Source: Chloroflexota bacterium (GTDB lineage: Bacteria; Chloroflexota; Dehalococcoidia; DSTF01; RBG-16-68-14). From it: a DNA stretch of 64,000 nucleotides. The notes under the pieces were generated by a model. That model saw only the letters and a program-made list of their open reading frames with translations, made no database searches and was not told where the DNA came from. Shown piece by piece: positions 3,489-63,995 of this stretch. A program made the position numbers and the translations under genes. How positions within the stretch are numbered: position 1 is the first letter of the stretch; each line of letters begins with the position of its first letter. Location: the NCBI GenBank assembly GCA_029262675.1, contig JAJCYW010000010.1, positions 129,166 to 193,165 of the forward strand. The letters are read 5' to 3'.

Positions 3489-3592
3489 GTCATCCTCCTA
3501 GACTGAGCTTGAGCCAGAGGCGCGATTGGCCGTATAGTAGGCGCAATCACGCTGCTCAGTCAACCACTGCTGCGAGAAGTGAGGGGACGGAT

Positions 3593-4969: not shown

Positions 4970-5006
4970 TAGTGGCGACGTACCGCCGATACCGGGATCG
5001 TCGGCA

Positions 5007-43989: not shown

Positions 43990-44688
43990 CTACGGCGCGG
44001 CGTGGGCGCCGACGTTGCCGTCCGCGTCGTCGTACAGGCGCTCCGCCCGGACGACGACCCGATCGTCGTACTGGCCGACGCTGGGGTCAAACGACCCGCC
44101 GCAGGTGATTAGCGTGATGATCTCGTTTGGTGTTCTGCCGACGATCTCCTGGATCGGCGCGTCGCTCGCCTTGTACTGGTCTCTGCGGAAAACGCCGTAC
44201 TCGTACACCGTTCCGTCCTGTAGCCGGACCTCTATGACGTCTCCCGGCTCCAGGTCCTTCAGGTTCCAGAATACGGCCGCGCCGTAGTTGTAGTAGTCCA
44301 CGTGGCCTGAAAACACGGCGTTGCTGCCGAACCCGGGCCGGGAGCTGAAGTCGTACCAGGCGACGTTGAGCGGGCCATCCGGCGTCTCCATGACGCCGTT
44401 GTCATCGACGCTCAGCACGACGATCGGCGCGTCGACGCCGAAGCGCGGAATCGCCAGTCCGGCTATCTGCGCCTCGCTCGGCGGCGGGGCCTCCGCCGTC
44501 GGAGTCGGCTGCGGCGTCAGTATGCGGTCAAGGCTCGTGTCAAAAGTGGTTGCCGTTTCCGGGCCAGCGTAGCCTTCATCTCCGGTCAGTTGGAAGACGA
44601 AGAGAACGGCCGCCGCTATCAACGACAGCACGCCCGCACCCATGACGATCAGGGAGAGCCGGTTCCAGTTTGCGCTATCTATCTTCAT
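43990..44688 (-). CDS. Sortase-family transpeptidase (class undetermined)
   Basis: N-terminal TM anchor; catalytic His (FSGHVDYY), TLITCGG Cys motif, downstream conserved Arg (VVVRAERL). Confidence 0.75.
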   Translation of the reverse strand: MKIDSANWNRLSLIVMGAGVLSLIAAAVLFVFQLTGDEGYAGPETATTFDTSLDRILTPQPTPTAEAPPPSEAQIAGLAIPRFGVDAPIVVLSVDDNGVMETPDGPLNVAWYDFSSRPGFGSNAVFSGHVDYYNYGAAVFWNLKDLEPGDVIEVRLQDGTVYEYGVFRRDQYKASDAPIQEIVGRTPNEIITLITCGGSFDPSVGQYDDRVVVRAERLYDDADGNVGAHAAP

Positions 44689-46079: not shown

Positions 46080-48941
46080 CTAGTTCAGCCCCAGCCAGCT
46101 CCAGAACACGCCTCCACTGGAGGCGCCTCCTCCGGAGCTCGATCCGGCCGGGAAGCCAGAGATCAGCCCGGAAGCCTTCTGCAGAATCAACAGCGAGTCG
46201 AACGGGTCGATATTGCCGTCGTCGTTGACGTCAGCCGCGGCCGGGAACGGCACGGTTGACAGGCCGATCACCTCGAACAGGACCCAGAGCGAGTCGATCG
46301 GGTTGATGACGCCGTCGCCGTTCACGTCGCCCAGCTCGGGCGTCCCGGGCAGCGGGCTTGTCGAGACGCCGAAGTTCCACGAGCTGGCCGTCGAGGTCAG
46401 CACCGTGATCTGGATGTCGCCCGCGGCGGGGCCGATCAGCAGGTTCCGCTTGGAGATGCAGGGGTCAGGCTGGGCCTTGGTCGCCGGGCCGTTGCAGTTC
46501 GGCACCAGCACGCCGCCCTTGAACACCGGCAGCGTCTGCGCCGTCGTTCCCTGCGGGATGATGGACGAATCGAGCGTGAAGACGATGATGAGCGGCAGTT
46601 GCGACGTGCCGGACGGCGCGCTGATGTTCACCTGCTGTCCGAACAGCGTGAAGCCGCTGGGGGCGGGCTGGATGATGACCTTCTCAAGGATAGTCACCAC
46701 ACCGCCGACGGGCAGCGTAACGCTCGTTTCGAGCGGGTCTTCGGGGATCGCGCCGTCGCCCTCCTTGTCGGTCGTCACCAGGCCGCCGGGCGGCACTTCC
46801 TCCGACTGCGAATCCGGCAGCGCCGGCGTGTTGGTCGGCGTCGACGTTGGCGTTTCGGTCGGCGTTGGCGTGTCCGTCGGCACGGGCGTGTTCGTGGCCG
46901 TCGGCGTGAAGGTGTTGGTCACCGTCGGGCAGACATCGGGGCAGGGCGTGTGCGTCGGCGTCGGCGACTCCAGCGGCGTGGCCGTCGGCGTCGGCGTCAC
47001 CGTCGGCGCCGGCGCGTCGATGCAGTTGATGCGCAGCAAGTCCACGTACGGGAGTGTCGCGGTGTTATCGCCGAGGATGCCGTCACCGTCGCCGTCATAG
47101 ACGTGTTCGCCCAGCGGGTCCATGACAATCAACTCGATTTCGGGCAGGACGTCCCCAGCGTTGACCGTGTCGTAGAACGCGGAACCCGTGAGCCGCTGGG
47201 TGAAGATTGGGGTGCCATCGATGGGGTTCTTCGCGTACCCCGTCAGGAGCACGGGGACTTGCTGCACGGCCGTGCAGTGGACCTGCATCCGGACGAGCGT
47301 GCCGACCCGGTTCGACGCCGGGAACGGCGGTTCGTCGTCGGTCTTGGCCACGTGCCGCCGTTCCAACGGCTGGGCGGGGGATACGGTTGTCATGTTTGTA
47401 AACGCCTCGCAGACGAAGCCCGCCACGGCATCTGGCCGCCAGACGATCTCGTCAAAGCAGGAGCGCTCCTGGTGCTTGAGTCCGTTGAAGAAGACCTCGG
47501 TTTGGAACCCGCCGTAGCCGTCCGGGATCGAGTTCGCCTCGATCAGGATCTCGAACTTGCCGGACTCCGGGTCCTCCTCGGTGAACGGCGCCGTACACTT
47601 CTGAGGCTTTTCCGCCGTATCGCACGTGATGATGCCCGGGCCGTATGCGGTGAGCGAAAGCTCCGGCGGCGGCACCTCGCAGTTGATCGTGAGCACGTCG
47701 GCGTGCGGGCTGTTGACGGCGGCCACCTCGATCGTGCCGTCGTCCTCGTCGAAGAAGGCCGCGCCGTGCAGGTTCGCGATCGATAGCCTCTTCAGCGTTA
47801 CGGTCTGCGCGCCCGCCTGCGTGCAGTGCAGGTCGAGCTCGACGATGGTGCCCCTGTGCGTGCTGTTGGGGAACGTCGGCGCGGCGGCGCTGCGCGCCGT
47901 GTGGCGGATGAACTGGCCGAAGTTTTGGCCTGTGCACTCGTCGACGCTGGAGAGTTGCGGCCAGACGACCTCATCGTCGCAGTCCGGGCGCTGATTCCAG
48001 GCCAGGCCGCTGCTGAGCTGGACCTCTGTCTGGAAGCCGCCGTAGCCGTCCGGCGTCGGGATCGTGTTGACGTTGACCGCGACCGTGAACTCCCCCTGCT
48101 TGGTCTGGCCGGGGTAGTAGTCCGCTGTGCACGTCGCCGGCTTGGGCAGCGGCGTCGGCGTTGGCGTGCCGGCGCCGGTGTCTTCGACGCAGTCGAGTTC
48201 CGGCGCGTCCAGCGACATGATCGGGTTGGGCTGCGGCGTCGGCGTCGGCGTGTCGGTTGGCGTGTTCGTCGCCGTTGCCGTATTGGTAACTGTGGGCGTG
48301 TTCGAGGCCGTTGGCGTGGCGGTGGGGGTGTTGGTCGGTTCTGGCATCGGTGTGTGGGTGGGCAAGGTTCCGCCCGCCCCGCAGTTGACGATTATAAAAC
48401 TGCCAGGAACGGCGATATTGCCCAGGGCTGCGTCCGCGTATGCGGCGCCGCTGGTACCGGCGGGCGGGTCATTGAACGACACCAAAGTGATCTTATGTGA
48501 GCTGTCGCCCGACGTGCAGTTGAATTCGAAGGTGAACAGGTCGCCCTTGTAGAAGCTCGGGGGCGGGCTGATAAGTCCGGATAGGCAGCCACGGCCAGTG
48601 GTCGTGGCCGTGGACTGAGAAACGTCTGCGGCGTTGCATTCAGGCCACACAGTGGTGGACTGCTTGAACGTCAGGCCGGTAGCGCCGAAATCCAGGAACG
48701 CTTGCGTGCCGACGTAACCGTTCGTTGTCGGAACGGCGTCGCCGGTCACGGTGACCGTGAAGGCGCCGTTGAGGGCGACATTGTTAGAGGCGACGCTCAT
48801 GCTCATCGCCGCGCCGTCCACGGTGGACTGCGCAGTGTTGACCTGCTGGGCTACGATGAGAAGGACCGCCGCGACGGCTGCCATCAAGAGGAGTCCCGCA
48901 ACCGCCATCCGTCCGGATTCCTGCTGCATTTGAGTTAGCAT
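46080..48941 (-). CDS. Secreted modular protein A: signal/TM + 3 copies of the recurring N-domain family + PT-rich linkers + C-terminal dockerin
   Basis: ATG 48941 with GAGAAGGAAGG RBS. Copy 1 (GAAMSMSV...GYVGTQAFLDFG...VWPEC...GCLSGLISPP...AGTSGAAYAD) is nearly identical to the N-domain of the gene G protein; two diverged copies (DGYGGFQTEV...VVWPQL / ...VWRPD). Linkers PTNTPTATPTASNTPT, TPTPTATPLESPTPTHTP. Dockerin GDVNGDGVINPIDSLWVLFEV...DVNDDGNIDPFDSLLILQ. Confidence 0.7.
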   Translation of the reverse strand: MLTQMQQESGRMAVAGLLLMAAVAAVLLIVAQQVNTAQSTVDGAAMSMSVASNNVALNGAFTVTVTGDAVPTTNGYVGTQAFLDFGATGLTFKQSTTVWPECNAADVSQSTATTTGRGCLSGLISPPPSFYKGDLFTFEFNCTSGDSSHKITLVSFNDPPAGTSGAAYADAALGNIAVPGSFIIVNCGAGGTLPTHTPMPEPTNTPTATPTASNTPTVTNTATATNTPTDTPTPTPQPNPIMSLDAPELDCVEDTGAGTPTPTPLPKPATCTADYYPGQTKQGEFTVAVNVNTIPTPDGYGGFQTEVQLSSGLAWNQRPDCDDEVVWPQLSSVDECTGQNFGQFIRHTARSAAAPTFPNSTHRGTIVELDLHCTQAGAQTVTLKRLSIANLHGAAFFDEDDGTIEVAAVNSPHADVLTINCEVPPPELSLTAYGPGIITCDTAEKPQKCTAPFTEEDPESGKFEILIEANSIPDGYGGFQTEVFFNGLKHQERSCFDEIVWRPDAVAGFVCEAFTNMTTVSPAQPLERRHVAKTDDEPPFPASNRVGTLVRMQVHCTAVQQVPVLLTGYAKNPIDGTPIFTQRLTGSAFYDTVNAGDVLPEIELIVMDPLGEHVYDGDGDGILGDNTATLPYVDLLRINCIDAPAPTVTPTPTATPLESPTPTHTPCPDVCPTVTNTFTPTATNTPVPTDTPTPTETPTSTPTNTPALPDSQSEEVPPGGLVTTDKEGDGAIPEDPLETSVTLPVGGVVTILEKVIIQPAPSGFTLFGQQVNISAPSGTSQLPLIIVFTLDSSIIPQGTTAQTLPVFKGGVLVPNCNGPATKAQPDPCISKRNLLIGPAAGDIQITVLTSTASSWNFGVSTSPLPGTPELGDVNGDGVINPIDSLWVLFEVIGLSTVPFPAAADVNDDGNIDPFDSLLILQKASGLISGFPAGSSSGGGASSGGVFWSWLGLN

Positions 48942-49361: not shown

Positions 49362-50366
49362 TCAGCGGCAGATGAAGAGGTTCGCCTCTATTTGAAGGAT
49401 CAGCAGCGCGTCGATCGGCCCGGTGCGGCCATCGCCGTTCAGGTCGTCGCTGAACGGAACGAAGTCGATGACGCCCGTCGTCAGCCAGAGCACCCAGAGG
49501 GCGTCCTGGCTGTTGACCAGGCCGTTGCCGTCGATATCGCCGCAGGGCCGCGGCCGAGGCGTAGCGGTTGCGGGATCGAGCGTCGGCGTCGCGGTCACGG
49601 CCGGCGTCGGCGTTGGCGTCGTAGTCGGGGTCGGCGTTGCCGTGGGCGTAGGGGTGGGCGTCAGCGTGGGGCCGCCGGGCGTAATCGTCGGCAGCGGGGT
49701 GGGCGTCGGCGGCTCGCCGCAGATGATCGTGATGTTCGTCAGCTTGGGGATAGTGTCAACTTGAGAGTCGTTGACAAAGATCGTAATCTGTGATCCGCTG
49801 GTTCCCTGAGACGTGTTCGGAGGAATGACGCCATCATACGGCAACTGCACGACATCGCTGATGGTGTCCGTGCTGGAGCAGGTCATGCTGATGTGCACGA
49901 AGTCCCCGGCGAATGTGCTGATCGGCTGCGGCGGAAGTAATCCTGAGAGGCAGCCGTGGCCCACGTTGTAGATTGGCTGACCTGGCCCCGCCAGGTTGTC
50001 GAACTCCGGCCGCTGGGCGGTTTGCCCTACACAGTCCGGCCACACGATCTCATCGGCAGCTAGGCCGGTTCTGTTGTACGTCAGGTGTTCGCCGTAGCGG
50101 ACGAACGACTGCACGGCTACATACCCGCTGCTCGGGGCAGTGACGATCTTCACGGCCAGCGTGAACGTCTCGTCGAGCTCTAGCTGGCAGGTGCCCTCGC
50201 AGTCGCCGTCGGCCGCGATCACCGTGAGCGCCATCTCCGGGCCGCCGGACGTGGCGGACGTGGACGGCAGTTGGCCGCTGAGGAAGAGCGCGGCGGCGGC
50301 CAGCGCCACCACGGCAACGCCCGCGGCGGCGATGCGTCCGGCCCGTGGCCGCGATCGCGTGCTCAT
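49362..50366 (-). CDS. Secreted protein B: signal + N-domain + PT linker + dockerin
   Basis: SGGPEMALTV...GYVAVQSFVRYG...IVWPDC...HGCLSGLLPPQP...; TPTPTPTATPTPTTTPTPTP; dockerin CGDIDGNGLVNSQDALWVLW...DLNGDGRTGPIDALLILQ. Confidence 0.7.
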   Translation of the reverse strand: MSTRSRPRAGRIAAAGVAVVALAAAALFLSGQLPSTSATSGGPEMALTVIAADGDCEGTCQLELDETFTLAVKIVTAPSSGYVAVQSFVRYGEHLTYNRTGLAADEIVWPDCVGQTAQRPEFDNLAGPGQPIYNVGHGCLSGLLPPQPISTFAGDFVHISMTCSSTDTISDVVQLPYDGVIPPNTSQGTSGSQITIFVNDSQVDTIPKLTNITIICGEPPTPTPLPTITPGGPTLTPTPTPTATPTPTTTPTPTPAVTATPTLDPATATPRPRPCGDIDGNGLVNSQDALWVLWLTTGVIDFVPFSDDLNGDGRTGPIDALLILQIEANLFICR

Positions 50367-50565: not shown

Positions 50566-51534
50566 TTACGCGGGTGGCACGCAGAAATCGCTGCCGTTGC
50601 CGGCCACGATCTGGAGGATCAACGCGGCGTCGATCGAGTTGACGACTCGGTCGCCGTCGATATCTCCGATCAGATCGAGAAGGCTGTCCTGGTTGTTGTC
50701 CTTGAGCGGTAGCAACGCCTCGACGAGCCCGGCGTCGAACCACAGCACCCAGAGCGCGTCCAGCGTGCTGATTTCACCATCGCGGTTGACGTCGCCGCAG
50801 ACAAAGTCCGGAACCGGCGTCGCTGTCGGCGGTACCGGCGTGTCCGTCGCCGGAGCCGGCGTGTCTGTCGGGCCAGGCGTGGCTGTCGGGCCGGATGTCG
50901 TCGGCGTGGCCTCGACAGGCGCCGTCGTTGGCGTTTCTGGCGGCGCGCCCGCACCGCAGGTGATGGAGAGGGTGCTCACCTTGGCGGGTATGACTTCGGC
51001 TCCGGCGGAGAAACCGGTGCCGCTGGTACCGGCGACAGGGTCGCCTGCCGGCAGCAGCGCTACGTCCGTCGTACTGGGGCCCGCGGAGCACGTGATTGAT
51101 ACCTCTGCGAAGCTGCCGGTGGCGGTGCTGAGCGGCAGCGGCGGAATCAGGCCAGTGAGGCAGCCGTGGTTGACGGTGGTCGGCCCGCCCGGCTGGTCGT
51201 GCAAGGCCACCGCGTCGGTGCAGTCCGGCCAGAGGATTTCGTCAGCAGCGGCCACCGCTGCGAGGTCGTAGGACAGGTCGCTGCCGAAGTCGATGAACGA
51301 CTGGGCGCCGACGTAGCCGCCTGCCAGCCCCTCGATGATCTCGACCGTGAGCGTAAACTTCGCGCTGTTATCGAACGTGCAGTCTGCGGCGCAGCCTTCG
51401 GCCGTCAGCCGCATCTCCGGGCCGCTACTGGCGGCCGAGGTGGTCTGAATCTGGTCGGCGAGGAAGAATGCCGTCGCCACGAGGGCGAGCACAGCCGCCA
51501 GCCCGAAGCCCAGATATGTTCTCTTTAGTTGCAT
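50566..51534 (-). CDS. Secreted protein C: signal + N-domain + PT linker + dockerin
   Basis: ATG 51534 (MQLKRTYLGF...) with AAGGAGG 7 nt upstream. SSGPEMRLTA...GYVGAQSFIDFG...ILWPDC...HGCLTGLIPPLP; dockerin CGDVNRDGEISTLDALWVLW...DIDGDRVVNSIDAALILQ. Confidence 0.7.
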   Translation of the reverse strand: MQLKRTYLGFGLAAVLALVATAFFLADQIQTTSAASSGPEMRLTAEGCAADCTFDNSAKFTLTVEIIEGLAGGYVGAQSFIDFGSDLSYDLAAVAAADEILWPDCTDAVALHDQPGGPTTVNHGCLTGLIPPLPLSTATGSFAEVSITCSAGPSTTDVALLPAGDPVAGTSGTGFSAGAEVIPAKVSTLSITCGAGAPPETPTTAPVEATPTTSGPTATPGPTDTPAPATDTPVPPTATPVPDFVCGDVNRDGEISTLDALWVLWFDAGLVEALLPLKDNNQDSLLDLIGDIDGDRVVNSIDAALILQIVAGNGSDFCVPPA

Positions 51535-51570
51535 CGTGTAACCTCCTTGCATATCTCGCTTCGAGACGCG

Positions 51571-52362
51571 CTACTGTACGCGGCGGCCTGCGATTACGCG
51601 CAGGCCGAACGTGGAGAGCCCCGTCGCGCTGATCGCCAGCAGAGCTGCGATTACTGCCCACATGCCTGTTCCGAACCCGCTGTCGCCGGTGGCGCTGAAT
51701 GTACCCGTGTCCGGCAGACCAGTCGGACCAGTCGGCCCGGGCGGTGGCGCCTCGCCACAGTTGACGATTACGGAGTCCGTCTTGGTCGGCACGTCTACTT
51801 GTGTATCGCCCTCATAGAAGGCGAACGCGGCGCCGCTGGTCCGGCCGGCGGATAGCGGCATCAGGCGCACGGCCGTGTGCGAGTAGGTGTCTGAGCACTC
51901 CAGGTCGATTTCAAGCAGCGTGCCCGTGTAGCTGCTCTCAGGGAGCGGCGGGAGCAGGCCCGTGAGGCCGCCATGGGTGATCTCGCCTGCCCCTACATCG
52001 CCTCTGATGATTACATCTTCGGATACTGCGTCGGGCCACAGGAACTCATCCGCCGGTTCCGGCCGCGCGACGTAAGTCAGGTCCAGGCCGTAGTCGATGA
52101 ACGTTTGTACCAGAACGTAGCCCTCGATCGGCGCCGTGACGACGTCGACCGTGACCGTTATCTCGCCGCCCAGATCCACGTCACACTCGCCGCCGCTGCA
52201 ATCGACGCCGGGGCCGGATACGCTGATGGCCATCTCCGGACCGATGCCGGCAGCGCTCGCGGTGGGTGCGGCGGTCTGGCCCCATGCCAGCACCAGCATC
52301 GCCATGAGCGGGATACCCAACAGCGCGGTGCTGCGTAGCCCTAATCGTTTCCGCACTTCCAT
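51571..52362 (-). CDS. Surface protein D: signal + N-domain + C-terminal LPDTG sortase sorting signal, no dockerin
   Basis: ATG 52362 (MEVRKRLGL...) with GGAAGGGAG RBS. GIGPEMAISV...GYVLVQTFIDYG...FLWPDA...HGGLTGLLPPLP. C-terminus GLPDTGTFSATGDSGFGTGMWAVIAALLAISATGLSTFGLRVIAGRRVQ. Confidence 0.7.
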   Translation of the reverse strand: MEVRKRLGLRSTALLGIPLMAMLVLAWGQTAAPTASAAGIGPEMAISVSGPGVDCSGGECDVDLGGEITVTVDVVTAPIEGYVLVQTFIDYGLDLTYVARPEPADEFLWPDAVSEDVIIRGDVGAGEITHGGLTGLLPPLPESSYTGTLLEIDLECSDTYSHTAVRLMPLSAGRTSGAAFAFYEGDTQVDVPTKTDSVIVNCGEAPPPGPTGPTGLPDTGTFSATGDSGFGTGMWAVIAALLAISATGLSTFGLRVIAGRRVQ

Positions 52363-52705
52363 GTTAGCTCCCTTCCTTCTACTCTTCCCTAAGTCTCGCG
52401 GCGTCCCTGGCCGGCGCACCCCTAAGCGGGGCCGCTTCGGCTGCGATCCGAAAGGTCGTGTGGCCCCCGCCACATCTTCCCCATAAGCACTGCCCCATGC
52501 CCAAACGTACCGGCGGAAGGGGCAGTAGCTGCGCCTAGCCTAGCGTATCCGGGGAGTTAATACTAGCCCCTCCGCGCAAGCCGGCCAGACGCTTCCACGT
52601 GGCTTCGGCATTATCATACTCGATTCGCGCAACTGCGCAAGGTGCGATTCTGGCTTACATGTCCGTGCTCTCATCTGTCGCACCAATGCGTCTCATTGAT
52701 GACGG

Positions 52706-52740
52706 CCGGAGAGCCGCCCTCGATTGGCGGCTCTCCCCGG
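52706..52740. terminator. Hairpin CCGGAGAGCCGCC-ctcgatt-GGCGGCTCTCCCCGG 3' of gene E
   Basis: Read directly, 24 nt downstream of the E stop on the minus strand. No clear U-run. Confidence 0.35.
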
Positions 52741-52763: not shown

Positions 52764-53549
52764 TTAATTCACGCACGGCACCTGATACTGCGTGATGGCG
52801 CCCAGGATGTCAAGGAGAAGGTCGATTGCGCCGTCGTCGTTGATGTCGAAGGCCGGATCGTACGGCGGGGCTCCACTAGGAGCGTAGTGCTGAATGATGC
52901 CCAGGATGTCGTTCAGCAGGTCGACGATGCCGTCTCCGTTTGTATCGGCGCAGCCCATGAACAGGAGGGTTGATGACAGGACGCTTACTCCAGGGATCTG
53001 CCCGATGTCATCGGGGTCCGCCGGCGTGTTGATCAGGTACGAACCAGTCAGGTCCAGCGCGGTTCCCGGACCCATGATCGAGCCCGGATCGAGCGTCAGC
53101 TTCGCCAGGAGGCCGGTGCCTTGCACGCCGAAGGGAGGCACGTGGTCGATGGTAACGCAGTCCACGAAGACGTGGTTGGCCTCTATCGTCGGTGAAGGAC
53201 AGGATGGGCTTCGGCCGGATCCGGCAAGCCACGTGGTGTACGGCACCCAGGTTACGGCCGTCGCCAGCGAATCGTCGAATGCGATGTCGACGCGGAAGCC
53301 GGAGGCGCCTCCGGGCTCCTTCACGCTGACGGCCCAGACATAGATGTCTCGGTCAATGCCATCCGGGGAGACGACGATAGAGGACGCGCGGACGGGACTT
53401 ACGTCGGAGTAGCTCAACAAGATCTGCGTGGTCCCCGCACTTTCCGCGGGGTTGCTATCTTGAGCGATCCCCACTGTGGCGAAGACGAGCGCTCCAACCA
53501 GCAATCCGATCTTCGCGAATCCTCGCAATGGCTTTGTCAGTCGGTTCAC
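52764..53549 (-). CDS. Secreted adaptor-like protein E: signal + cohesin-like module + dockerin
   Basis: GTG 53549 (VNRLTKPLRGFAKIGLLVGALVFATV...) with AGGAGG 7 nt upstream. Cohesin-like hallmarks GASGFRVDIAFDDSLATAVTW and GTGLLAKLTLDPG. Dockerin CADTNGDGIVDLLNDILGII...DINDDGAIDLLLDILGAI. Confidence 0.6.
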   Translation of the reverse strand: MNRLTKPLRGFAKIGLLVGALVFATVGIAQDSNPAESAGTTQILLSYSDVSPVRASSIVVSPDGIDRDIYVWAVSVKEPGGASGFRVDIAFDDSLATAVTWVPYTTWLAGSGRSPSCPSPTIEANHVFVDCVTIDHVPPFGVQGTGLLAKLTLDPGSIMGPGTALDLTGSYLINTPADPDDIGQIPGVSVLSSTLLFMGCADTNGDGIVDLLNDILGIIQHYAPSGAPPYDPAFDINDDGAIDLLLDILGAITQYQVPCVN

Positions 53550-53607
53550 GGCTTGTACCTCCTGCTTCCGAATGCGTTGCATACGGGAACTGGCTCCCCC
53601 CGAAGCT

Positions 53608-54549
53608 CTATGATTCTCCCCTGTGCATGATGCGCCGCCGCAAGAAGCCTGCCGCCAGTCCCGCTGCCGTGAGGCCGCCAAGGCCAACGAGGATCCAGAG
53701 TGTGACAGCGCCGTTTGCGTTCCCGTCGTCATCGGGGGCGCTGATGCTCGGTGTAGGTGTGCCGATTTCAGAAACGGCCGTGTCTGTCGCTGTCGGCGTG
53801 CCATCCGCCGCGGGAGTCGTCGGCGCCGGCGAGGCGCCCGCAGTCGGCGACTGCACGGTTGCCGGTTCGATTGTTGTCGTGGCGTTCGTTCCTGGCGTGT
53901 CTGTTGCGACCTGCGGCGAAGACGTAGCCGTGGGCGGTGCGTTTCCGGTCACGCGGACCAGGCCGCCGACGACGTCCAGTGGTACCGGGTCTCCCAGCGG
54001 ACCCGAGAGTTGAGACGTCAGCAACAGCGGGCTGGAGCCCGCGCCCAGCGGCGTGAACGTCACGCTGGCAAGCGTGAGTTCGCCCTGCAGCCCCGGGATC
54101 GAATCGCTGGAAGACAGGCAGCCGAAGCGGACGCTGCCCGGCTCTACGCGCGGTGGCAGGCATTGGAACGGGCGGCTACTGGCTGCCAGCCCCGGGCCGG
54201 GCTCGAGGTGGTCCACAGCGACGACGGTCTCATCGAATTCGATGATGAACTCGAACGCGGCCATGCCGATCGATTCAACTTCGCGGTCCGGAACGGTATC
54301 GCGGTTGTCGTCGTAGAAGATCGCCCCGTGGTGGTCCAGGTCCTCCAGGACGATGAAGACGCCAAACGCACCGCTGTCCGCGTCGACGCTGGAGATGGCC
54401 GGCAGCAGCCGGACCGTTCCGTCTGCGGACTGCGCGCTGGTGGACTTAACTGCGATCGTCATAGCAATCAGCATAAGCGATGCCAGAAGCATCCAGATCA
54501 AGAGCGTGCGAGGCCGCGCGCGAGGCATCAGCGGGGCGGTCCGACCCAA
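53608..54549 (-). CDS. Membrane-anchored cohesin-like protein F: signal + cohesin-like module + PT linker + C-terminal TM anchor
   Basis: TTG 54549 with GGGAGGAAAC RBS. Cohesin hallmarks GMAAFEFIIEFDETVVAV and GLQGELTLASVTFTPLGAGSSPL. C-terminus TLWILVGLGGLTAAGLAAGFLRRRIMHRGES; no LPXTG. Confidence 0.6.
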   Translation of the reverse strand: MGRTAPLMPRARPRTLLIWMLLASLMLIAMTIAVKSTSAQSADGTVRLLPAISSVDADSGAFGVFIVLEDLDHHGAIFYDDNRDTVPDREVESIGMAAFEFIIEFDETVVAVDHLEPGPGLAASSRPFQCLPPRVEPGSVRFGCLSSSDSIPGLQGELTLASVTFTPLGAGSSPLLLTSQLSGPLGDPVPLDVVGGLVRVTGNAPPTATSSPQVATDTPGTNATTTIEPATVQSPTAGASPAPTTPAADGTPTATDTAVSEIGTPTPSISAPDDDGNANGAVTLWILVGLGGLTAAGLAAGFLRRRIMHRGES

Positions 54550-54734
54550 ACGTTTCCTCCCATCTACGAAAACGATGCGGACGTGGCGAATGTAACGCCC
54601 GTGCTCCTCTTTCTAGCATGTTCCGGCCCCTGTGCAATGCCATTTCCCGCAGTCATTGCTGCGGATCTTCAGCCCTACCCCCAATTCGGCGTAGGACTCA
54701 AGGCCCAAAGCATCTGTAATCTGCGAATAGATAA

Positions 54735-54777
54735 GGGCGGGGAAGCCGGAACTATGAGTCCGGTGCTCCCCCGCCCC
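54735..54777. terminator. GC-rich hairpin GGGCGGGGAAGCCGGA...TCCGGTGCTCCCCCGCCCC 3' of gene G
   Basis: Read directly, ~90 nt downstream of the G stop on the minus strand; followed on that strand by TTATCTATT. Confidence 0.4.
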
Positions 54778-54868
54778 ATCTTGGTCACTCCGTGACCTGC
54801 TGTATTCGCTTCTTTCCCCGCAACCGCTCTAGCTGGCTACGGAAAGAACTTGATGATCTAAAACCCCC

Positions 54869-56329
54869 TTAGGCCTTCGGGTTCACCGGCGGCTGCGGCG
54901 GGTGCGGCACTGCGCATGTGCTTCCGAAGCGGCCAAAGACGAACTGCAGGTCGTTGATGTCGATGTCGGCATCTGACTGCGTTCCGGAGGGCTCCAGGTT
55001 CATGAAGTCCTTGTAGATCAGGCTACCCTTCTCAACGCCCCAACGGAACGAGATCGCCTGCGCGTCTAGCGCGTCGACCGAACAGTCGGGCTCCACGTCA
55101 CCTTCGAGGTAGCGGAACGTAATGTCCGCGTCGTCGCAGGCGAAGATCGGGATCGCCTCACCTTGCTCGTCACCCAGGTCACAGTTCACGTTGTTGATCT
55201 GGACGACGTTACCGTTTTCCTGGTTGGGCTTCATCGGAGAGTAGATCTCCGGCTGCGGATAGACATCGACGGTGGCCAGCGAGGCCAGGTTGTCGATGCG
55301 GTCTACTTCAGCCGCCTTACCCACGGTGACACAACCAATGCGGGCAACGCCCTCAAGCTGCGGCTTGCTAGCCGAGTCTTGGATGATGCAGATCGCACCC
55401 GCGGCCTGCCAGTCGGCGCCCGTGGTCAGGTCAACACAGACCTTCTTGTTGTCGTAGAGAACCTCGAACTCAAAGGCCGCGAGTACCTGGAATCCGGTCA
55501 CGCCCTTCGGGTCCGGGGAGACAACCGCCTGGCTCAGCTCTTCGCTGAGGCTACCGATGTTCGTGCCAGAGAGGCAGTCTACCGGCGGAACCTTTGAACC
55601 CTGTCGCGTCAGGAAGACGTTCTGCAGGGCCGGGATCTTGGACATTCGCGGCACCGGCGGCGGCGTGTTCGTCGGCGTCGATGTCGGAGTCGGCGTGAAT
55701 GTCGGAGTCGGCGTTGCTGTGTTCGCGTTCGTGCAGTGTACGGTTACCGAACTGCCAGGAACGGCGATGTTGCCAGTTACAGCGTCAGCAAATGCCGCGC
55801 CGCTGGTACCGGCGTTCGGGCCGCCGAGCGTCTCCAGATCAATCTGGTGGCCCTGGGACTTGCCCGTTGTGCAGGTAAAGTCGAACTGGAACAGCGCACC
55901 CTTGATAACGCTGATTGGCGGACTGATCAGTCCGGTCAGACAACCACGGCCAACGGTTGTGGCCGTCAGTGTTCCAAGGTCTGCCGCGGCGCAGTCTCCC
56001 CATATGGTGGAGGAGCCCGTTGCCGTCAGACCAGTGGCGCCAAAGAACAGGAAGGCCTGCGCACCGACGTAACCGTTCGTAATCGGAACGGCGTCACCGC
56101 TGACGGTGACGCTAAAGGCGCTACCAATTGGGACACAAACGTCGCCCGGGGCCTTTGCGCCGGGGCAGGTCTGGCCGCCGGAGACGGCCATGCTCATGGC
56201 AGCGCCGTCTGTGGCTGCCTCTGCAGTGTCGGTGCTGTGGCCCATGCTGAACACCATGACCGCTAGCGCGATCGCCAGAAGCGGCAGGCTCAGCAAGCCC
56301 AGTACCTTAATTCGTTGTGTTCTATTCAC
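54869..56329 (-). CDS. Secreted protein G: signal + N-domain + PT linker + cohesin-like module + divergent (class-2) dockerin-like module
   Basis: GTG 56329 (MNRTQRIKVLGLL...) with AGGAGG 8 nt upstream. N-domain TDGAAMSMAVSGG...GYVGAQAFLFFG...GCLTGLISPP. Cohesin-like GVTGFQVLAAFEFEVLYDNKKVCV...ARIGCVTVG. C-terminal DVEPDCSVDALDAQAISFRWGV...DADIDINDLQFVFGRFGSTC. Confidence 0.65.
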   Translation of the reverse strand: MNRTQRIKVLGLLSLPLLAIALAVMVFSMGHSTDTAEAATDGAAMSMAVSGGQTCPGAKAPGDVCVPIGSAFSVTVSGDAVPITNGYVGAQAFLFFGATGLTATGSSTIWGDCAAADLGTLTATTVGRGCLTGLISPPISVIKGALFQFDFTCTTGKSQGHQIDLETLGGPNAGTSGAAFADAVTGNIAVPGSSVTVHCTNANTATPTPTFTPTPTSTPTNTPPPVPRMSKIPALQNVFLTRQGSKVPPVDCLSGTNIGSLSEELSQAVVSPDPKGVTGFQVLAAFEFEVLYDNKKVCVDLTTGADWQAAGAICIIQDSASKPQLEGVARIGCVTVGKAAEVDRIDNLASLATVDVYPQPEIYSPMKPNQENGNVVQINNVNCDLGDEQGEAIPIFACDDADITFRYLEGDVEPDCSVDALDAQAISFRWGVEKGSLIYKDFMNLEPSGTQSDADIDINDLQFVFGRFGSTCAVPHPPQPPVNPKA

Positions 56330-56701: not shown

Positions 56702-58900
56702 TCATAACAACAGCGAGCAGTCCTGCCCGTGGTGCTGAATGACCGGCAGGACGTCGAAGAGCAGGCTGACCGTGCCGTCACCGTCGATATCGTAGAGCAC
56801 GTCGAATCCGGGATCTCCCGTTACCTCGCCGTGGTGTTGCACGACCGTCAGGATGTCGAAGAGCAGGTCGACCACGAGGTCGCCGGTAACGTCGAAGCAG
56901 GCCTTCAGGTCTGTTGTTTCGGAGGCGTCGTTGCCTACTGGGTTCTCATCCGGGTCCGAGGCAGACGCCGTGACGTTGTTCGTAATCGTTTGGTCCACCA
57001 TCAGTGTTGGCGCGCGCACATCCAGCGTGATGATCACCTGGCTGCTTACGAGGACCTCGTCGATGGTGCACTCGACCGTATCGACCGGTACCGCGACGCA
57101 AACGGCTCCCGTCGCGCCGACAAAGGTGGCCGGACGGTTGAACTTGGCGAAGTTGAAGACGGTAGCCGTCGGCAACGTGTCCGTCACGACCACGTCCAGC
57201 GCGTCGCCGAGCCCGATGTTGTCGACCGTGATCGTGTAGCTGTAGTAGCCGAGTCGCAGCACCGGATCGGCCAAATCCACCTTGGTTACGACGAGGTCCG
57301 GCGGCGGCGCCACAACCGGCGTGTACGCGATAGCCGAGTTGTTGCCGGAGTGGACAAAGAGCTCGTTGTCGGCCGAAACGACCGCAGTGTTCTTCATCAT
57401 CAGGCTCTGCGTCACCACCGGAGAGAGCATCACGATCTCGACGAATGCATCGCTGCCCGCCGGAATGTTCCCCAGGCTGCAGGTGACGACCCCGGCGACT
57501 GGCGCGCCGCAGCCGGGGCTTGCCGACACGAAGGCACCGTCCAACGGAAGCGTGTCCACAATGACGACGTTTTCTGCCTCTTGCGGACCGCTGTTTGCGG
57601 CCGTCAGCGTGTACGTGACGTTCTCGTTGCCGTTCACGAATGACGGATCGCCCACTTTGGTCAGATCCACGTCTGACCGTGGTGCGAGGACTACCGTCTC
57701 TTCGATATCCGTATTATTACCGGTGTTCGCAAAAGGCTCGTTGCTCGCGCTTACAGTGACCGTGTTCGAGACCAGCGTGTCCAATATGGGCGATGGCGCC
57801 GTCACGGTGATATCGATGACTACCTGGTCGGACGGGTTCATCGGGTTGGTGACCGTGCAGATCACGACGCCTAGATTCTCGCCGCAGTTGGCGCCCGCGG
57901 AGACCGCGGACACAAACGACGAACCGGGCGGTAACGCGTCGGACATCGTAACGTCCTCGGCCGTTTGCAGGCCCACGCTATCGATGGTGACGCGGTACGT
58001 GAAAGTGGCCGTCGCGTCGACGGGGTCCGTCAGGTCGACCTTCGTCACCTTGACGTCAGGCCGCTCGCTCGGCGGCGGCAGCGGCGTCGGGGTGTCGGTC
58101 GGCGTCGGCGAGACCGTCGGCGTGTGTGTAGCCGGAATCGGCGTCACCGTCGGTGTCGGCGTCGGGCCCAGGCAGTGGACGACGAGATCTGAAAGCTTCG
58201 GAATGACTGTTGTTGTCCCATCCTGGAACGCGGTGCCGCTGGTGCCCGCCAACGGGTCGTTTTCCGGCAGGAGCTGGACATTGGTGGTGGAAGAAGACGA
58301 GGAGCACGTGAATGATAGCTCCAAGATGGTGCCGATGAAGAAGCTCACCGGCTGCGGGGGGATTAGGCCCGTGAGTCCGCCGTGGGATACGACGTGCGGC
58401 GCGACTTGGGCCTTGAATACCACCGAAGGGTCTAGGTCTGGCCAGACCATCTCGTCGGCCGCGGCCTGGGAGTTGTAGGTGAGGTTGGTCGTGACGCAAT
58501 CGGTGTCGAAGCGGTCGGCGCCATCGCCGCCGCCGTTGTCGATTGTGTCACTGCAGGTATTGAGACCGGCGCCGTCTTCGCTCGCGGCGGGATCGTAGAT
58601 GCCGTAATCGATGAACGTCTGCACCGCAATGTACCCCGGCACTGGCGTATCGATGACATTAGCCGTCAGCGTGAAGGTGTCGCCTGCCGTGACGCAGTCG
58701 TCGTTCGGGTCATAGCCGCCCGGGCATGCTGTGCCGCCCGTAGTAACCGCCATAGAGATCTCCGGTCCGGTGCTGGCGGCCTCTGCGCGCTGCTCGCCGC
58801 CGCTATCCCAGACCAGGAAGACCGCGACGGCGATGAGCGCGATGATTGGCAGCACCAAGAGCCGTGTTGCCATCCTTGGACTAATGTTGCCGATCTTCAT
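56702..58900 (-). CDS. Secreted protein H: signal + N-domain + 3 DUF11-like conserved repeat domains + dockerin
   Basis: ATG 58900 with GGAGGAGG RBS. N-domain STGPEISMAV...GYIAVQTFIDYG...MVWPDL...HGGLTGLIPPQP. Three ~120-aa repeats (DVKVTKVDLTDPVDATATFTYRVTI.., DVDLTKVGDPSF..VTYTLTAANSGPQEAENVVIVDTLP.., DLVVTKVDLADPV..YSYTITVDNIGLGDALDVVVTDTLP). Dockerin CFDVTGDLVVDLLFDILTVV...DIDGDGTVSLLFDVLPVI. Confidence 0.7.
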   Translation of the reverse strand: MKIGNISPRMATRLLVLPIIALIAVAVFLVWDSGGEQRAEAASTGPEISMAVTTGGTACPGGYDPNDDCVTAGDTFTLTANVIDTPVPGYIAVQTFIDYGIYDPAASEDGAGLNTCSDTIDNGGGDGADRFDTDCVTTNLTYNSQAAADEMVWPDLDPSVVFKAQVAPHVVSHGGLTGLIPPQPVSFFIGTILELSFTCSSSSSTTNVQLLPENDPLAGTSGTAFQDGTTTVIPKLSDLVVHCLGPTPTPTVTPIPATHTPTVSPTPTDTPTPLPPPSERPDVKVTKVDLTDPVDATATFTYRVTIDSVGLQTAEDVTMSDALPPGSSFVSAVSAGANCGENLGVVICTVTNPMNPSDQVVIDITVTAPSPILDTLVSNTVTVSASNEPFANTGNNTDIEETVVLAPRSDVDLTKVGDPSFVNGNENVTYTLTAANSGPQEAENVVIVDTLPLDGAFVSASPGCGAPVAGVVTCSLGNIPAGSDAFVEIVMLSPVVTQSLMMKNTAVVSADNELFVHSGNNSAIAYTPVVAPPPDLVVTKVDLADPVLRLGYYSYTITVDNIGLGDALDVVVTDTLPTATVFNFAKFNRPATFVGATGAVCVAVPVDTVECTIDEVLVSSQVIITLDVRAPTLMVDQTITNNVTASASDPDENPVGNDASETTDLKACFDVTGDLVVDLLFDILTVVQHHGEVTGDPGFDVLYDIDGDGTVSLLFDVLPVIQHHGQDCSLLL

Positions 58901-60860: not shown

Positions 60861-63800
60861 CTATCGCGGGCCATCTGTGTCCTCTTGACGACGCGACGGC
60901 GCAGGCCTGAAGCGCGGCTGGAACGGTGCCGGCGTCACGCCCTGCCGTCTGCGCCACCACAGCAGTTGCGACCAGGCGAGCAGCACCGCGCCGCCCGCTA
61001 ATCCAGCGATCGCGAGCGTGGTTGGCAGTACGTCGCCCGATGACCCGTCAGCCCCTCCCGTATCGGGGAGACCTGCGACCGGAGTCTTTAGGATAGGCCC
61101 ACTGTCGCGGACCAGTGTTGGTGTTGAGGTTGGCACAGGCGCCTGGATGGGCGTGGCCGATCCCGTGGGTGATGCGGGCGTTGCGGTGCTGGGCGGCGCC
61201 CCGGGGGCCGGCGTGTCCGTCGGCGGGATGAATGCGGGCGTTGCGGTGCTGGGCGGCGCACCGGGGGCCGGCGTGTCCGTCGGCGGGATGGCGGGAACTG
61301 GTGTGGCGGTGTTTGCGGGTGCCGGCGTCGATGTGGGCGGCACAGCGGGCGTCCCGAATGTCGGTAGCGGGATCACCGTCGCCGTTGGTGGTGGCGGAGT
61401 CGTCGGTGTGGGCGTTGGAATCGCCGCTATCGCCGGTGTCCACGTCGGCTCGGCGGTCCACGTCGGTACTGGTGTCCAAGTCGGCTCCTGCGTCCACGTT
61501 GGCTGGGGCGTCCAGGTGTGCGTCGCTGTCGGCGAGGCGTCAGACGTTGGCACAGGCGTACCAGAGCCGTCAGGCGTCGCGGAGGGTTCTGGAGTCGTAC
61601 TCGGTGCCGGCGTGTCTGTAGCTGTAAGAGCCGGCGTGGCTGTCGCCGTCGATGTTACCGTTGGGTCCGGCGTCGGCGAGCCGGCCCCGGCGCCTCCCGG
61701 CGTGGCAGTTGCCGTCGCTGTCGCTGCGGCCGTCGCTGTCGCTGGCGCAGTCGTTACCGTCGCGGTTGGTTGCGGCGAAGGTGATGCGGTCGGAGTGCTT
61801 GACGGCGTTTCGCCGGTCGGCCCAGGGGTCGCGGTAGCCTCGGGCGTGACGCTCGGCGTTGGGGTTTCCGTTGACTTGGATGGCGGATCCTGTATGCCCC
61901 ACGGTTGCGCACAGGTGCTGCCCGTGCGGCCGTAGACTGTCTGCAGGTCGCTGATGTCGATGTCGCCGTCCGGCCGGATGGCTGGCTCGAGATCGTACCT
62001 CTCCTGATATAGGGTAGAGCCTTCGGAAACGCCGAAGCGTCCGGCTACCATTTGGTGATCGATGACGTTGACGGCGCAGTCGACGTTGATGTCGGACTCC
62101 AGCGCGCGAACGATGACCTTGGCGTCGCCGACGAACGAAACCGGAATGCCGTCCTCCAGCGCGCCGACGAGTCTGGTGTTCGCCGTGACGTCATCCAGAA
62201 TCACTTCTATCCCGTTATTTGGCGCCGGCCGAATCGGAATCCTCGCCAGCGGTGTTACCGTGATCCTGGCGAAAGCGAACGTGCCGCTCGGGCCGGGGTC
62301 GACGCCGGTCGTCACGCAGCCGAAGCGCACCGCTCCCTCCGTCCTGTTCTCCAGACATGTCGCCGTTCGGTCTGTGCCTTCCAACTCCTGGAGGAACGGC
62401 GAGGCGTCGATATCGAGCGATACGGTGTTGTTGTCGTAGGCCACGTGCAGCTCAAAACCACCGAGGCCGGATCCCTCCGGAACGTTCTGCGCCCGTTCGT
62501 ACAGCACAAGCGAGCCATTGCCCAAGAATAGGTTGGATTCCGCCGGCTCCTTGATCACACTGACGATATCCTGTTCCGATTGAACGCCCGCCGGCCCCGT
62601 GACGCCTGGATACGCGACTGACTTGTGGGCCGTAATCGCCACCGTCCGCAGCGTCGTGGTGAGCGAGCTGCTGTTGAGGCTCGGTATGCCTGGCGTTGCT
62701 GTTGGAGTCACCGTCGGTGTCGGGGTGGGCGTAGCGACAGGTGTCGGAGTCGCCGGCGGGATGACGATGACGACGCCGTCCTGCGTCACGATAGGTAGCT
62801 GGGCCGCGCCTGGGACGTCGACGATAATCGGGCCTGAGAGATGGAGCGGTGACAGTCCTTCGGCGAGGGCGAAGAATGTGGCCGTGGCGATCACGCCTGA
62901 ACCGTTGGCGCCAGGCGGCGTGGTGCCGATGGTGTTGCAGGAGAACTCGACGTCGCTAACGCCTACGATGGGCGGCAAGCAGACGACGTTGCGTCCCGTA
63001 CTGCCGAGAAAGGGGCCGACGACGAGCGACTGGGACAAGATCACAGACGGGCTGTAGCTGAGCATGAACTGGAACGCGCCGAGGTCGGCTACGTTATCGA
63101 CAACAATGTCCGCCGTGACGATGGTACCGACTGGCGCGTTCTGGCTGACCGGATCTATGCGTATGGTGACTGGCCCAGCGGGCGTCGTTGACGTTGGCGT
63201 AGGTGTGAACGTCGCTGTCGGCGGCGGGATCGGCGTGTCGGTGGGGGTTGGGGTGATCGTCGGCGTTGGTGTCACCGTCGGCGTCGGGCAGATGCCGCCC
63301 GGGCACGGGGTTGGTGTCACCGTCGGCGTCGGGCTGAGCGTGGCAGTTGGCGAGAGCGTCGGCGTCGGCGTCGCCCCCTCGACGACCGTGATCTCGCCGA
63401 CTCCGAGTGCCGCCGTCGGGTAGGCGAGTCCAGGGACGTCTGTGAAAATGACGTCCTCAAACGTCAGCAAGCTGATGCCGGCAGCCTCTCCCCGCAGCGT
63501 GATGAATGCTAACACGCCGGTGCCTGTTGGCCCCGCCGGTGTTGGTTCAATCGACACGCAGGTGTACTGGATGAAACCCGGCCCGGCGGTGGGCACTAGG
63601 CACGTGACGATGCGTGATGTGCTGGAGAGGAACGGCCCGGGTGATACGCTGGGCGCGGAAACGACGAGCGGATCATACCGAAGCGTGAACTGGAAGGCGC
63701 CCAGCTCCGGCGCGTTTGCCACAGCGACCTCAAGGATCGTTTCGCTGCTCAGATTCACAGTCTGGCTCTGCGGCTGCGGGCAGAGGATGAAGACGACCGC

Positions 63801-63995
63801 CGCGCCGCACGTGATCGGCGTTGGTGTAGCCGTGGGCGTTGACGTTGGCCCGCCAGGCGTCGGCGTTGAGGTCGGTGTCAATGTCGGGCATGTAGTCGTG
63901 CCCAAGACGGTCGCGGTGCCATTGTGCAGCGAGCGCGGGATCGGCGTGCCGAGCGTATCGGCGATGTCTGCGTTTGCCAGGATCAGCGTGCTCAC
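60861..63995 (-). CDS. Scaffoldin-like surface protein J (N-terminus beyond window end): >=3 cohesin-like modules + class-2 dockerin-like module + long PT-rich region + LPDTG sortase signal
   Basis: Three cohesin hallmarks (LGAFQFTLRYDPLVVSA..GVLAFITLRGEAAGISLLTF; LGAFQFMLSYSPSVILS..GVIATATFFALAEGLSPLHL; LGGFELHVAYDNNTVSL..GTFAFARITVTP) separated by PTPT linkers. DINVDCAVNVIDHQMVAGRFGV...DGDIDISDLQTVYGRTGSTC. C-terminus GLPDTGGADGSSGDVLPTTLAIAGLAGGAVLLAWSQLLWWRRRQG. ORF still open at 63995. Confidence 0.65.
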   Translation of the reverse strand: MSTLILANADIADTLGTPIPRSLHNGTATVLGTTTCPTLTPTSTPTPGGPTSTPTATPTPITCGAAVVFILCPQPQSQTVNLSSETILEVAVANAPELGAFQFTLRYDPLVVSAPSVSPGPFLSSTSRIVTCLVPTAGPGFIQYTCVSIEPTPAGPTGTGVLAFITLRGEAAGISLLTFEDVIFTDVPGLAYPTAALGVGEITVVEGATPTPTLSPTATLSPTPTVTPTPCPGGICPTPTVTPTPTITPTPTDTPIPPPTATFTPTPTSTTPAGPVTIRIDPVSQNAPVGTIVTADIVVDNVADLGAFQFMLSYSPSVILSQSLVVGPFLGSTGRNVVCLPPIVGVSDVEFSCNTIGTTPPGANGSGVIATATFFALAEGLSPLHLSGPIIVDVPGAAQLPIVTQDGVVIVIPPATPTPVATPTPTPTVTPTATPGIPSLNSSSLTTTLRTVAITAHKSVAYPGVTGPAGVQSEQDIVSVIKEPAESNLFLGNGSLVLYERAQNVPEGSGLGGFELHVAYDNNTVSLDIDASPFLQELEGTDRTATCLENRTEGAVRFGCVTTGVDPGPSGTFAFARITVTPLARIPIRPAPNNGIEVILDDVTANTRLVGALEDGIPVSFVGDAKVIVRALESDINVDCAVNVIDHQMVAGRFGVSEGSTLYQERYDLEPAIRPDGDIDISDLQTVYGRTGSTCAQPWGIQDPPSKSTETPTPSVTPEATATPGPTGETPSSTPTASPSPQPTATVTTAPATATAAATATATATPGGAGAGSPTPDPTVTSTATATPALTATDTPAPSTTPEPSATPDGSGTPVPTSDASPTATHTWTPQPTWTQEPTWTPVPTWTAEPTWTPAIAAIPTPTPTTPPPPTATVIPLPTFGTPAVPPTSTPAPANTATPVPAIPPTDTPAPGAPPSTATPAFIPPTDTPAPGAPPSTATPASPTGSATPIQAPVPTSTPTLVRDSGPILKTPVAGLPDTGGADGSSGDVLPTTLAIAGLAGGAVLLAWSQLLWWRRRQGVTPAPFQPRFRPAPSRRQEDTDGPR

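Follow-up and report, generated by a model that had tools for sequence, protein, structure and literature searches.

Do two neighbouring genes that each encode one cohesin-like module, the first continuing into a membrane anchor and the second into a dockerin-like tail, make two proteins with separate roles or two parts of one device? The question is raised by the interval 52764-54549 of a 64,000-nucleotide stretch of a Chloroflexota genome (contig JAJCYW010000010.1; this whole stretch is hereafter the window). The interval holds two minus-strand genes, F and then E, 58 nt apart, with the first base of F's TTG start codon at 54549 and the last base of E's stop codon at 52764. Nearly all that is understood of cohesin-dockerin assembly comes from cellulose- and starch-degrading Firmicutes, where the anchors are S-layer homology (SLH) modules or sortase signals, and the host phylum of F and E is poorly studied. 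An earlier note, made from the letters of this DNA, had described F as an anchored cohesin and E as an adaptor with a different fate. The architecture is indeed the parts list of an anchor (F) and an adaptor (E), and the C-termini do differ, but the separate roles fare less well, as the comparative data favour a dedicated F-E pair. We propose, with a probability of about one half, that F and E are a conserved anchor-plus-adaptor module in a non-cellulolytic cohesin-dockerin surface-assembly cluster and that E docks on F.

The evidence that carries this proposal is the conservation of the pair: F and E are a conserved two-gene unit, which is our main addition to the earlier observation. An F-like gene lies directly 5' of an E-like gene in eight of the ten other loci examined (L002, from a Chloroflexota metagenome-assembled genome (MAG), L010, L011, L014, L015, L016/L017, L018 and L020). 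The paired F-like genes show a signal, a cohesin, a low-complexity linker, a transmembrane helix and a basic tail, and the identity of their E-like partners to E ranges from 59% down to roughly 25-35%. Five orthologous loci have 52-65 nt between the two genes; on the 3.2-kb contig L015 the spacer is 4 nt long, and there the pair stands without other genes of the cluster alongside. The closest loci are labelled Chloroflexota or Dehalococcoidia, and further close homologues of E and F, found on contigs whose lengths are equal, probably share contigs as well. The metagenome scan used tail-based patterns and yielded mostly proteins that share the tail alone, so that it is not a systematic count of F-E adjacency. 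Because the pairing is dedicated and deeply conserved, docking of E on F is favoured over two separate fates.

A second argument comes from matching like with like. Within the window, dockerin-like tails whose loops are one residue longer than usual (+1 loops, described below) are limited to E and protein C, and divergent cohesins are limited to F and E. Two divergent cohesins thus stand against two +1-loop tails, and four canonical dockerins, those of proteins B, H, I and J, against the multi-cohesin scaffoldin A, which could serve them. Support also comes from a metagenomic locus (L042) in which a single-cohesin protein of 230 aa with a transmembrane helix and a basic tail (2423-3115, minus strand) has as its divergent neighbour a 610-aa protein (3390-5222, plus strand) that ends in a tail of the flexitail type, a tail class to which that of E is related.

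The two genes are probably co-transcribed. Their 58-nt spacer (53550-53607, minus strand), which contains the AGGAGG of E (53558-53563), has no hairpin, nor was one found in the other spacers scanned (L002, L010 and L011). A perfect 11-bp GC-rich hairpin follows 28-56 nt past the stop codon of E (52708-52736, minus strand); it has no U-tract and is a probable terminator of the F-E unit. The 77-nt region with this 3' hairpin folds at -32.7 kcal/mol (z = -3.5), and counterparts occur in L002 and L011. On the other side, the 319-nt spacer between gene D and F contains a conserved GC-rich hairpin (54735-54776, minus strand), probably the terminator of the upstream gene, whose type (GGGCGGGGAAGC / GCTCCCCCGCCC) was found in three loci: the window, L002 (4316-4361) and L010 (5527-5571). 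Scans of the locus for sigma-70 promoters, terminators and Rfam families gave nothing useful. It is the short, hairpin-free spacer, the flanking hairpins and the recurrence of this arrangement in orthologues that suggest a two-gene transcript.

F (53608-54549, minus strand; 313 aa) runs from TTG to TGA, with a Shine-Dalgarno sequence, GGGAGG, 6 nt 5' of the start (54556-54561, minus strand); E (52764-53549, minus strand; 261 aa) starts with GTG, 8 nt after AGGAGG. Both non-ATG starts, which the earlier note had read together with their ribosome-binding sites, recur in orthologous loci: TTG opens five of six F-like genes and GTG five of eight E-like genes, and a Shine-Dalgarno-like sequence precedes most of these starts, among them sequences similar to GGGAGG or AGGAGG 5' of the F-like TTG in L002, L010, L011, L014 and L016. 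In four orthologous loci, in-frame stops 1-8 codons 5' of the start of E leave no room for a longer protein, and the relatives of E all begin at the GTG position (MNxLTK...). The starts of F and E are thus supported comparatively. A 346-aa ATG open reading frame (ORF) listed for E by the ORF finder, which overlaps F, and an in-frame ATG at 53582 are without support in the orthologues. We also do not regard as genes the antisense ORFs of up to 390 aa found across the cluster (for example 53623-54795, plus strand); these Arg/Gly-rich artefacts reflect the GC content of 62-69%.

Given its domain layout and the lack of a sorting motif, the most fitting reading of F is a type I membrane protein with one cohesin displayed outside the cell. 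Residues 1-39 (54433-54549, minus strand) have the layout of a Sec signal peptide, with a basic stretch, a 19-residue hydrophobic core (residues 16-34; Kyte-Doolittle 2.59) and a putative cleavage site, TSA|QS. The cohesin module follows at residues 44-201 (53947-54420, minus strand). In an AlphaFold2 model built from 20 family members this block reaches pLDDT (predicted local distance difference test) values of mostly 80-96, with helices predicted at 13-31 and 280-310. When the model was compared with the PDB using Foldseek, the top 45 matches were all cohesins or cohesin-like modules, the best being 2xdh (E=7.7e-9, TM-score on target 0.73; maximum among the matches 0.74); identity to solved cohesins is only 10-18%. 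Model and matches together show the nine-stranded jelly-roll of cohesins. The Pfam Cohesin family (PF00963) scores 15.8 bits on F, below its gathering threshold of 24.1, and is matched at E<=0.01 by 7 of 20 members of the F family (best 6.9e-5). BLASTP nevertheless connects F to the three visible cohesins of protein A (E=5e-12, 2e-10 and 7e-9), which passes the threshold at 40.4 bits. F is therefore a cohesin by fold and by homology to recognised cohesins, not by the Pfam threshold. Sequence searches of the PDB with E and F, as single sequences and as profiles, gave only weak matches; with the F profile, five cohesins rank first, but with E-values of 0.07-0.4.

Within the cohesin, a near-invariant insertion, H.G...YDDNRDT.PDR, distinguishes F and its close relatives (residues 73-89, 54283-54333; YDDNRDTVPDR in F). 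Its DxNxDxxxD pattern recalls a calcium-binding loop, and neither E nor the distant F-like proteins of L015 and L018 have it. When F-E pairs were compared, a correspondence with the loop type of the partner E held in five of six pairs that have the insertion and in two of two that do not, a pattern that is confounded by phylogeny and that we did not use as evidence. The cohesins of F (C130/C144), E (C117/C131) and A share a pair of cysteines 13-14 residues apart, probably a disulfide-stapled hairpin typical of this clade of Chloroflexota cohesins.

The C-terminus of F was described in the earlier note as a Pro/Thr linker, a hydrophobic helix and RRR, and this description stands. The linker (residues 202-279, ~78 residues; 53713-53946, minus strand) is weakly conserved, with 33% mean pairwise identity and pLDDT below 50. 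It leads to a transmembrane helix (280-303) and the basic tail RRRIMHRGES (53611-53712, minus strand). F has no LPXTG motif, the 20 family members have no conserved motif before the helix, and a weak Gram_pos_anchor match was obtained for just one of the 20; F is thus not of the LPXTG-type, sortase-anchored kind. The hydrophobic helix and basic tail without a conserved sorting motif support tethering in the membrane at the level of the sequence, and by the positive-inside rule the RRR would lie inside the cell. F is a candidate anchoring scaffoldin: it has a cohesin and an attachment element, which in the known cases is an SLH module or a sortase signal and in F a transmembrane helix.

E is a predicted secreted protein with a signal-like N-terminus (residues 1-29; 53463-53549, minus strand), either a cleaved signal or a signal-anchor, followed by a divergent, beta-rich cohesin-like module (residues 40-197; 52959-53432, minus strand) and, 2-3 residues past its last strand, a dockerin-like tail. 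E and F were noted earlier as neighbours with related cohesin-like modules and different C-termini, and sequence comparison shows the relationship: BLASTP aligns them over ~200 aa (27% identity, E=8e-6), and hhalign matches the two families with a probability of 96.8% (E=3e-10). The E-family profile further finds multi-cohesin proteins with Pfam Cohesin scores of 87-187 bits, and one small E-like protein, P0142, itself passes the threshold of this family at 27.6 bits. E thus qualifies as a cohesin by sequence homology, a far more divergent one than F and with its identity established indirectly; it lacks motifs common to F and the cohesins of A. In some E orthologues (P0009, P0012), one loop of the module holds 1-3 copies of a ~35-residue acidic repeat (GGTKQVDIIDGQVDVDQSGTVD.ADD...), which shows that this loop tolerates large insertions.

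The tail of E (C200-C259; 52773-52952, minus strand) consists of two DxNxDGxxDLLxDIL repeats, DTNGDGIVDLLNDILGIIQ and DINDDGAIDLLLDILGAITQ, set between two invariant cysteines, with helices predicted by AlphaFold2 at 211-221 and 244-253; these are tandem calcium-binding loop-then-helix repeats. Pfam Dockerin_1 (PF00404) matches 8 of 13 members of the E family at E<=0.01, the relative P0090 passes its cut-off with 25.3 bits, and the E-family profile matches solved dockerins at E=0.004-0.008. Yet the dockerin is not the canonical one that had been claimed, being below the Dockerin_1 cut-off, flanked by cysteines and close to another curated family. Both loops (DLLxDIL) are one residue longer than the 12-residue EF-hand-like loop, so that the acidic, helix-starting Asp falls on position 13 instead of 12, and an alignment of E, C and the NCBIfam family flexitail (NF041520) with B, H, I, J, P0142 and P0090 requires one residue to be inserted in the first three. 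Flexitail is the best curated match of the tail, at 37.6 bits against a cut-off of 40, and E covers positions 38-107 of its 107-position model. Other E-family members score 34-38 bits and true flexitails 125-253 bits, so that E is a relative rather than a member. The tail of E and flexitail agree in a terminal Cys, in loops longer by one residue and in a core, DG-[IV]-[IV]-DL-x-NDILG-x-I-Q, that occurs twice; they differ in that E has retained classical DxNxDG loops and has no counterpart of the first ~37 model positions, the DTDGDGC...NPWDFYD extension. Since the loops of more distant E-like proteins have the usual 12 residues and these proteins exceed the Pfam dockerin threshold, we regard the tail as a derived dockerin. 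It is the best-conserved part of E (mean pairwise identity 74.5%, as against 53.6% for the cohesin module), as expected of a module gripped by a conserved partner. A homology search with the 66-aa tail alone returned one protein, and a literature search on 'flexitail' found no relevant paper and no published function.

In the scheme that we infer, from signal-peptide cleavage through topology, disulfides and co-transcription to every binding partner, F would be exported, probably lose its signal peptide and be held in the cytoplasmic membrane by the helix at its C-terminus, the RRR tail facing the cell interior and the Pro/Thr-rich linker keeping the cohesin off the membrane. E, exported from the same transcript, would plug its disulfide-clasped, calcium-loop-bearing tail into a cohesin, most probably that of F, and its own divergent cohesin would stay exposed as a second docking site for tails of the same class. 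The candidate ligand for this site in the window is protein C (56702-58900).

Several observations weigh against this scheme. On the genomic side, an E-like gene in L022 directly follows a D-like gene and has no F-like gene upstream, the very distant E-like gene in the low-GC locus L019 also lacks one, and L012 has one distant F-like gene by itself. The scan of the locus found no promoter, and the hairpins are without U-tracts. Cellulosomal scaffoldin genes, too, can be adjacent without their products binding each other directly. On the protein side, the tail of E stays below the Dockerin_1 cut-off (19.1 as against 22.9 bits) and Pfam Cohesin has no match on E. The AlphaFold2 model of E is poor (mean pLDDT 55), and its four best Foldseek matches are cohesins at E-values of ~6e-4 to 9e-4, with immunoglobulin domains mixed in below. 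With a weak model and fold matches that lean only mildly towards cohesins, the assignment of this module depends on homology, not on a confirmed fold.

The two proteins could instead be independent, F taking up dockerin cargo at the membrane and E acting as a ScaC-like adaptor that sits on scaffoldin A or another cohesin and changes its specificity. Ruminococcus flavefaciens and Acetivibrio cellulolyticus provide established examples of such adaptor scaffoldins (PMC12484212), the same cluster encodes a multi-cohesin scaffoldin anchored by sortase, and the two E-like loci without an F-like neighbour fit this view. We nevertheless consider it unlikely, since the tight and deeply conserved order of F then E persists in L015 without other cluster genes, which is not expected if the partner of E is the scaffoldin, and since the tail of E differs in class from the canonical dockerins, the ligands that the cohesins of A would naturally have. 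A quite improbable course is that E associates with itself. Its dockerin would then bind the cohesin-like module of the same molecule, making a closed and inert form, or that of the next molecule head-to-tail, giving a non-covalent chain that F would anchor and that could be capped by C or another protein with this class of tail. As the cohesins of E and F are homologous, a tail that fits F might fit E too, and direct fusions of cohesin and dockerin recur in D, inside A and in L008. Their modules are only 27% identical, however, that of E being without the motifs that F shares with the cohesins of A, and the 2-3 residues between module and tail make an intramolecular fit on the usual face sterically doubtful.

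The lack of a linker in E, the strong divergence of its beta-module, which has no Pfam Cohesin match, and its lower conservation relative to the tail would also be compatible with a module that no longer works as a cohesin and instead supports the dockerin in the manner of an X-module; in that case E would serve the cohesin of F as a small ligand or cap, possibly a regulatory one. The module is kept across a large family, which points to selection on more than a scaffold role, and relatives such as P0142 retain a Pfam-recognisable cohesin; we find this reading very doubtful. F, for its part, might not stay in the membrane if its C-terminal helix and basic tail are a sorting signal that an unrecognised sorting enzyme cleaves, sending F to the wall or to a lipid. 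Linker, helix and basic cluster do resemble sortase-type and exosortase-type signals, and three of 20 family members have insignificant matches to GVDTG_CTERM (14.2 bits, cut-off 29). That F is sorted in this way is highly improbable, given that no motif is conserved before the helix in the 20 family members, that F has no LPXTG while the LPDTG substrates A and G share its cluster, and that the genes of the 30-46 kb scanned did not include a second sorting enzyme.

Single-cohesin anchors, proteins with one cohesin and one dockerin, and adjacent genes for interacting cohesins and dockerins are already known; what differs here is the membrane-helix anchor, the expanded-loop, Cys-clasped and flexitail-related dockerin, the lineage and the non-hydrolytic cargo. 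In R. flavefaciens, whose scaffoldin genes are clustered as they are here, ScaE is a lone cell-fixed cohesin like F, and the adaptor scaffoldins ScaC and ScaH hold one cohesin and one dockerin in one polypeptide, like E, and bridge components (PMC12484212). The Foldseek matches of F include type III cohesin structures. Sortase fixes ScaE covalently via LPXTG; F, which lacks such a motif, has just a transmembrane helix, and the anchoring mechanisms described in the review are SLH modules and sortase, with no transmembrane helix among them (PMC12484212). Further differences from R. flavefaciens are the +1 loops and Cys clasp of the E dockerin and a cargo without glycoside hydrolases. The amylosome of Ruminococcus bromii, which is non-cellulosomal, has counterparts in Sca2 (a cohesin with a sortase signal) and in Sca1/Amy4 (a cohesin followed by a C-terminal dockerin), and self-association is considered possible there (PMC4611034). 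Amy4 is a 1,356-aa amylase, in contrast to the 261 residues of E, which has no other domain, and anchoring chemistry and phylum differ as well.

OlpA and OlpC of Clostridium thermocellum, monovalent cell-bound type I cohesins that catch dockerin proteins directly, are comparable to F, and their structures (3ul4, 4dh2) are among its best fold matches; they attach to the wall through SLH modules, F through a membrane helix. The best structural match of F, 2xdh, comes from Archaeoglobus fulgidus, a non-cellulosomal case in a host that does not degrade cellulose. It is archaeal and shares 16% identity with F. The A. fulgidus cohesin genes are neighbours, one of them also encoding the dockerin, and we know of no Pro/Thr linker or transmembrane anchor on an A. 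fulgidus cohesin. In Cellulosilyticum lentocellum, the adjacent genes for ClcC and ClcD encode a cohesin and a dockerin protein that heterodimerise (PMC13487519); unlike in F-E, the dockerin is part of a cellulase-related protein that has no second cohesin, and its partner has no membrane anchor. ClcC/ClcD and R. bromii are precedents for an arrangement of the F-E kind.

The family around E is large. A search with its profile gave 1,182 cluster representatives at a cut-off of E<=1e-3, with 208 left at E<=1e-10 and 55 at E<=1e-30. Among the best 150 representatives, 76 are 230-330 aa long, 72 of them with a Cys-flanked tail at the end, and most match the profile over nearly its whole length. 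The sources give the homologues of E and F no functional names beyond a single partial 'dockerin type I' label, and a literature search found no paper specifically on cohesin-dockerin systems of Chloroflexi. A 148-aa E-like fragment on a 1.7-kb MAG contig is labelled Pirellulales, which we treat as doubtful binning. Being small, conserved and widespread, the F-E pair is an easy experimental entry point and offers a testable function for flexitail and for a nameless family of ~260-aa proteins; new orthogonal cohesin-dockerin pairs would also be useful parts for synthetic protein scaffolds. The value of the finding lies in the conserved F-E operon and in the connection that may exist between flexitail and cohesins.

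Elsewhere in metagenomes, proteins of 300-1,437 aa with FG-GAP, RCC1, BNR, SdrD-B-like and similar domains have a C-terminal tail of the flexitail type. As a tentative extension, one we would not call likely, flexitail, which occurs on many surface proteins of Chloroflexota, could itself be a derived dockerin and the F-E operon its receptor system. E could then extend the F anchor or polymerise head-to-tail, and monoderm Chloroflexota would have a general, wall-independent route for the non-covalent display of beta-propeller and adhesin-like proteins. The cargo looks adhesive or structural, not hydrolytic, with DUF11 repeats and an uncharacterised N-terminal module at this locus and beta-propellers attached to related tails in others. 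P0058, on a 3.1-kb contig, is a multi-cohesin flexitail protein.

F and E lie within a minus-strand cluster that runs from at least 64000 to ~44000, in the order A, B, C, D, F, E, G, then H, I and J, followed by a TolB-like propeller in the opposite orientation and a sortase. Glycoside hydrolases were not detected among the cluster proteins, and the whole looks like a surface-display or adhesion apparatus, not a cellulosome. Protein A (60861-63995, minus strand) is a scaffoldin cut by the edge of the window; it has at least three cohesins, an internal cohesin-plus-dockerin-like unit, a ~300-aa Pro/Thr-rich region, LPDTG, a transmembrane helix and RRR. An orthologue in a Chloroflexota MAG (L007, 8240-14308) has 2,022 aa, ~10 cohesins and LPDTG, and Dehalococcoidia MAGs encode A-like proteins of 1,469-1,688 aa, two of which end in LPPTG signals (L005, L006). 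The sortase gene (43990-44688, minus strand) forms the end of the cluster. It matches Pfam Sortase at 83.8 bits; among the NCBIfam models class F comes closest, with a score below the cut-off (114.8 as against 166 bits). The enzyme presumably serves the LPDTG proteins A and G.

Protein B joins an uncharacterised domain to a canonical dockerin. Six secreted minus-strand proteins (46080-48941, 49362-50366, 50566-51552, 51571-52473, 54869-56329 and 56702-58900) open with a shared, uncharacterised module of ~150-205 aa, recognisable by the motifs GPEM...GY..Q.F..G...W.D...HGCLTGL.PP.P.S...G......C...GTSG......C (the GPEM module). One of them, G, is LPDTG-anchored and five have dockerin-like tails: in C (56702-58900, minus strand) the module is followed by three DUF11 repeats and a +1-loop tail, in D (54869-56329, minus strand) by a cohesin fused to a third dockerin-like type, and in H, I and J by canonical dockerins. 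We considered whether the GPEM module is a hidden cohesin and rejected this, as hhalign gave probabilities <1% against the E and F families and the PDB gave no match.

The third dockerin-like class (LEGDV.xDC.V...D.Q...DIDI.DLQ.V.GR.GSTC) forms the C-terminus of D (54869-55100) and recurs inside A (~61900-62150). It always stands right after a cohesin-like module (D, A, L004, L005, L006, L007 and L022), with which it may form a fixed cohesin-dockerin didomain. A pair of cysteines brackets, or lies within, most dockerin-like tails of the cluster. The GPEM module also occurs outside the window, in P0157 and P0177, where it is located between two flexitail domains.

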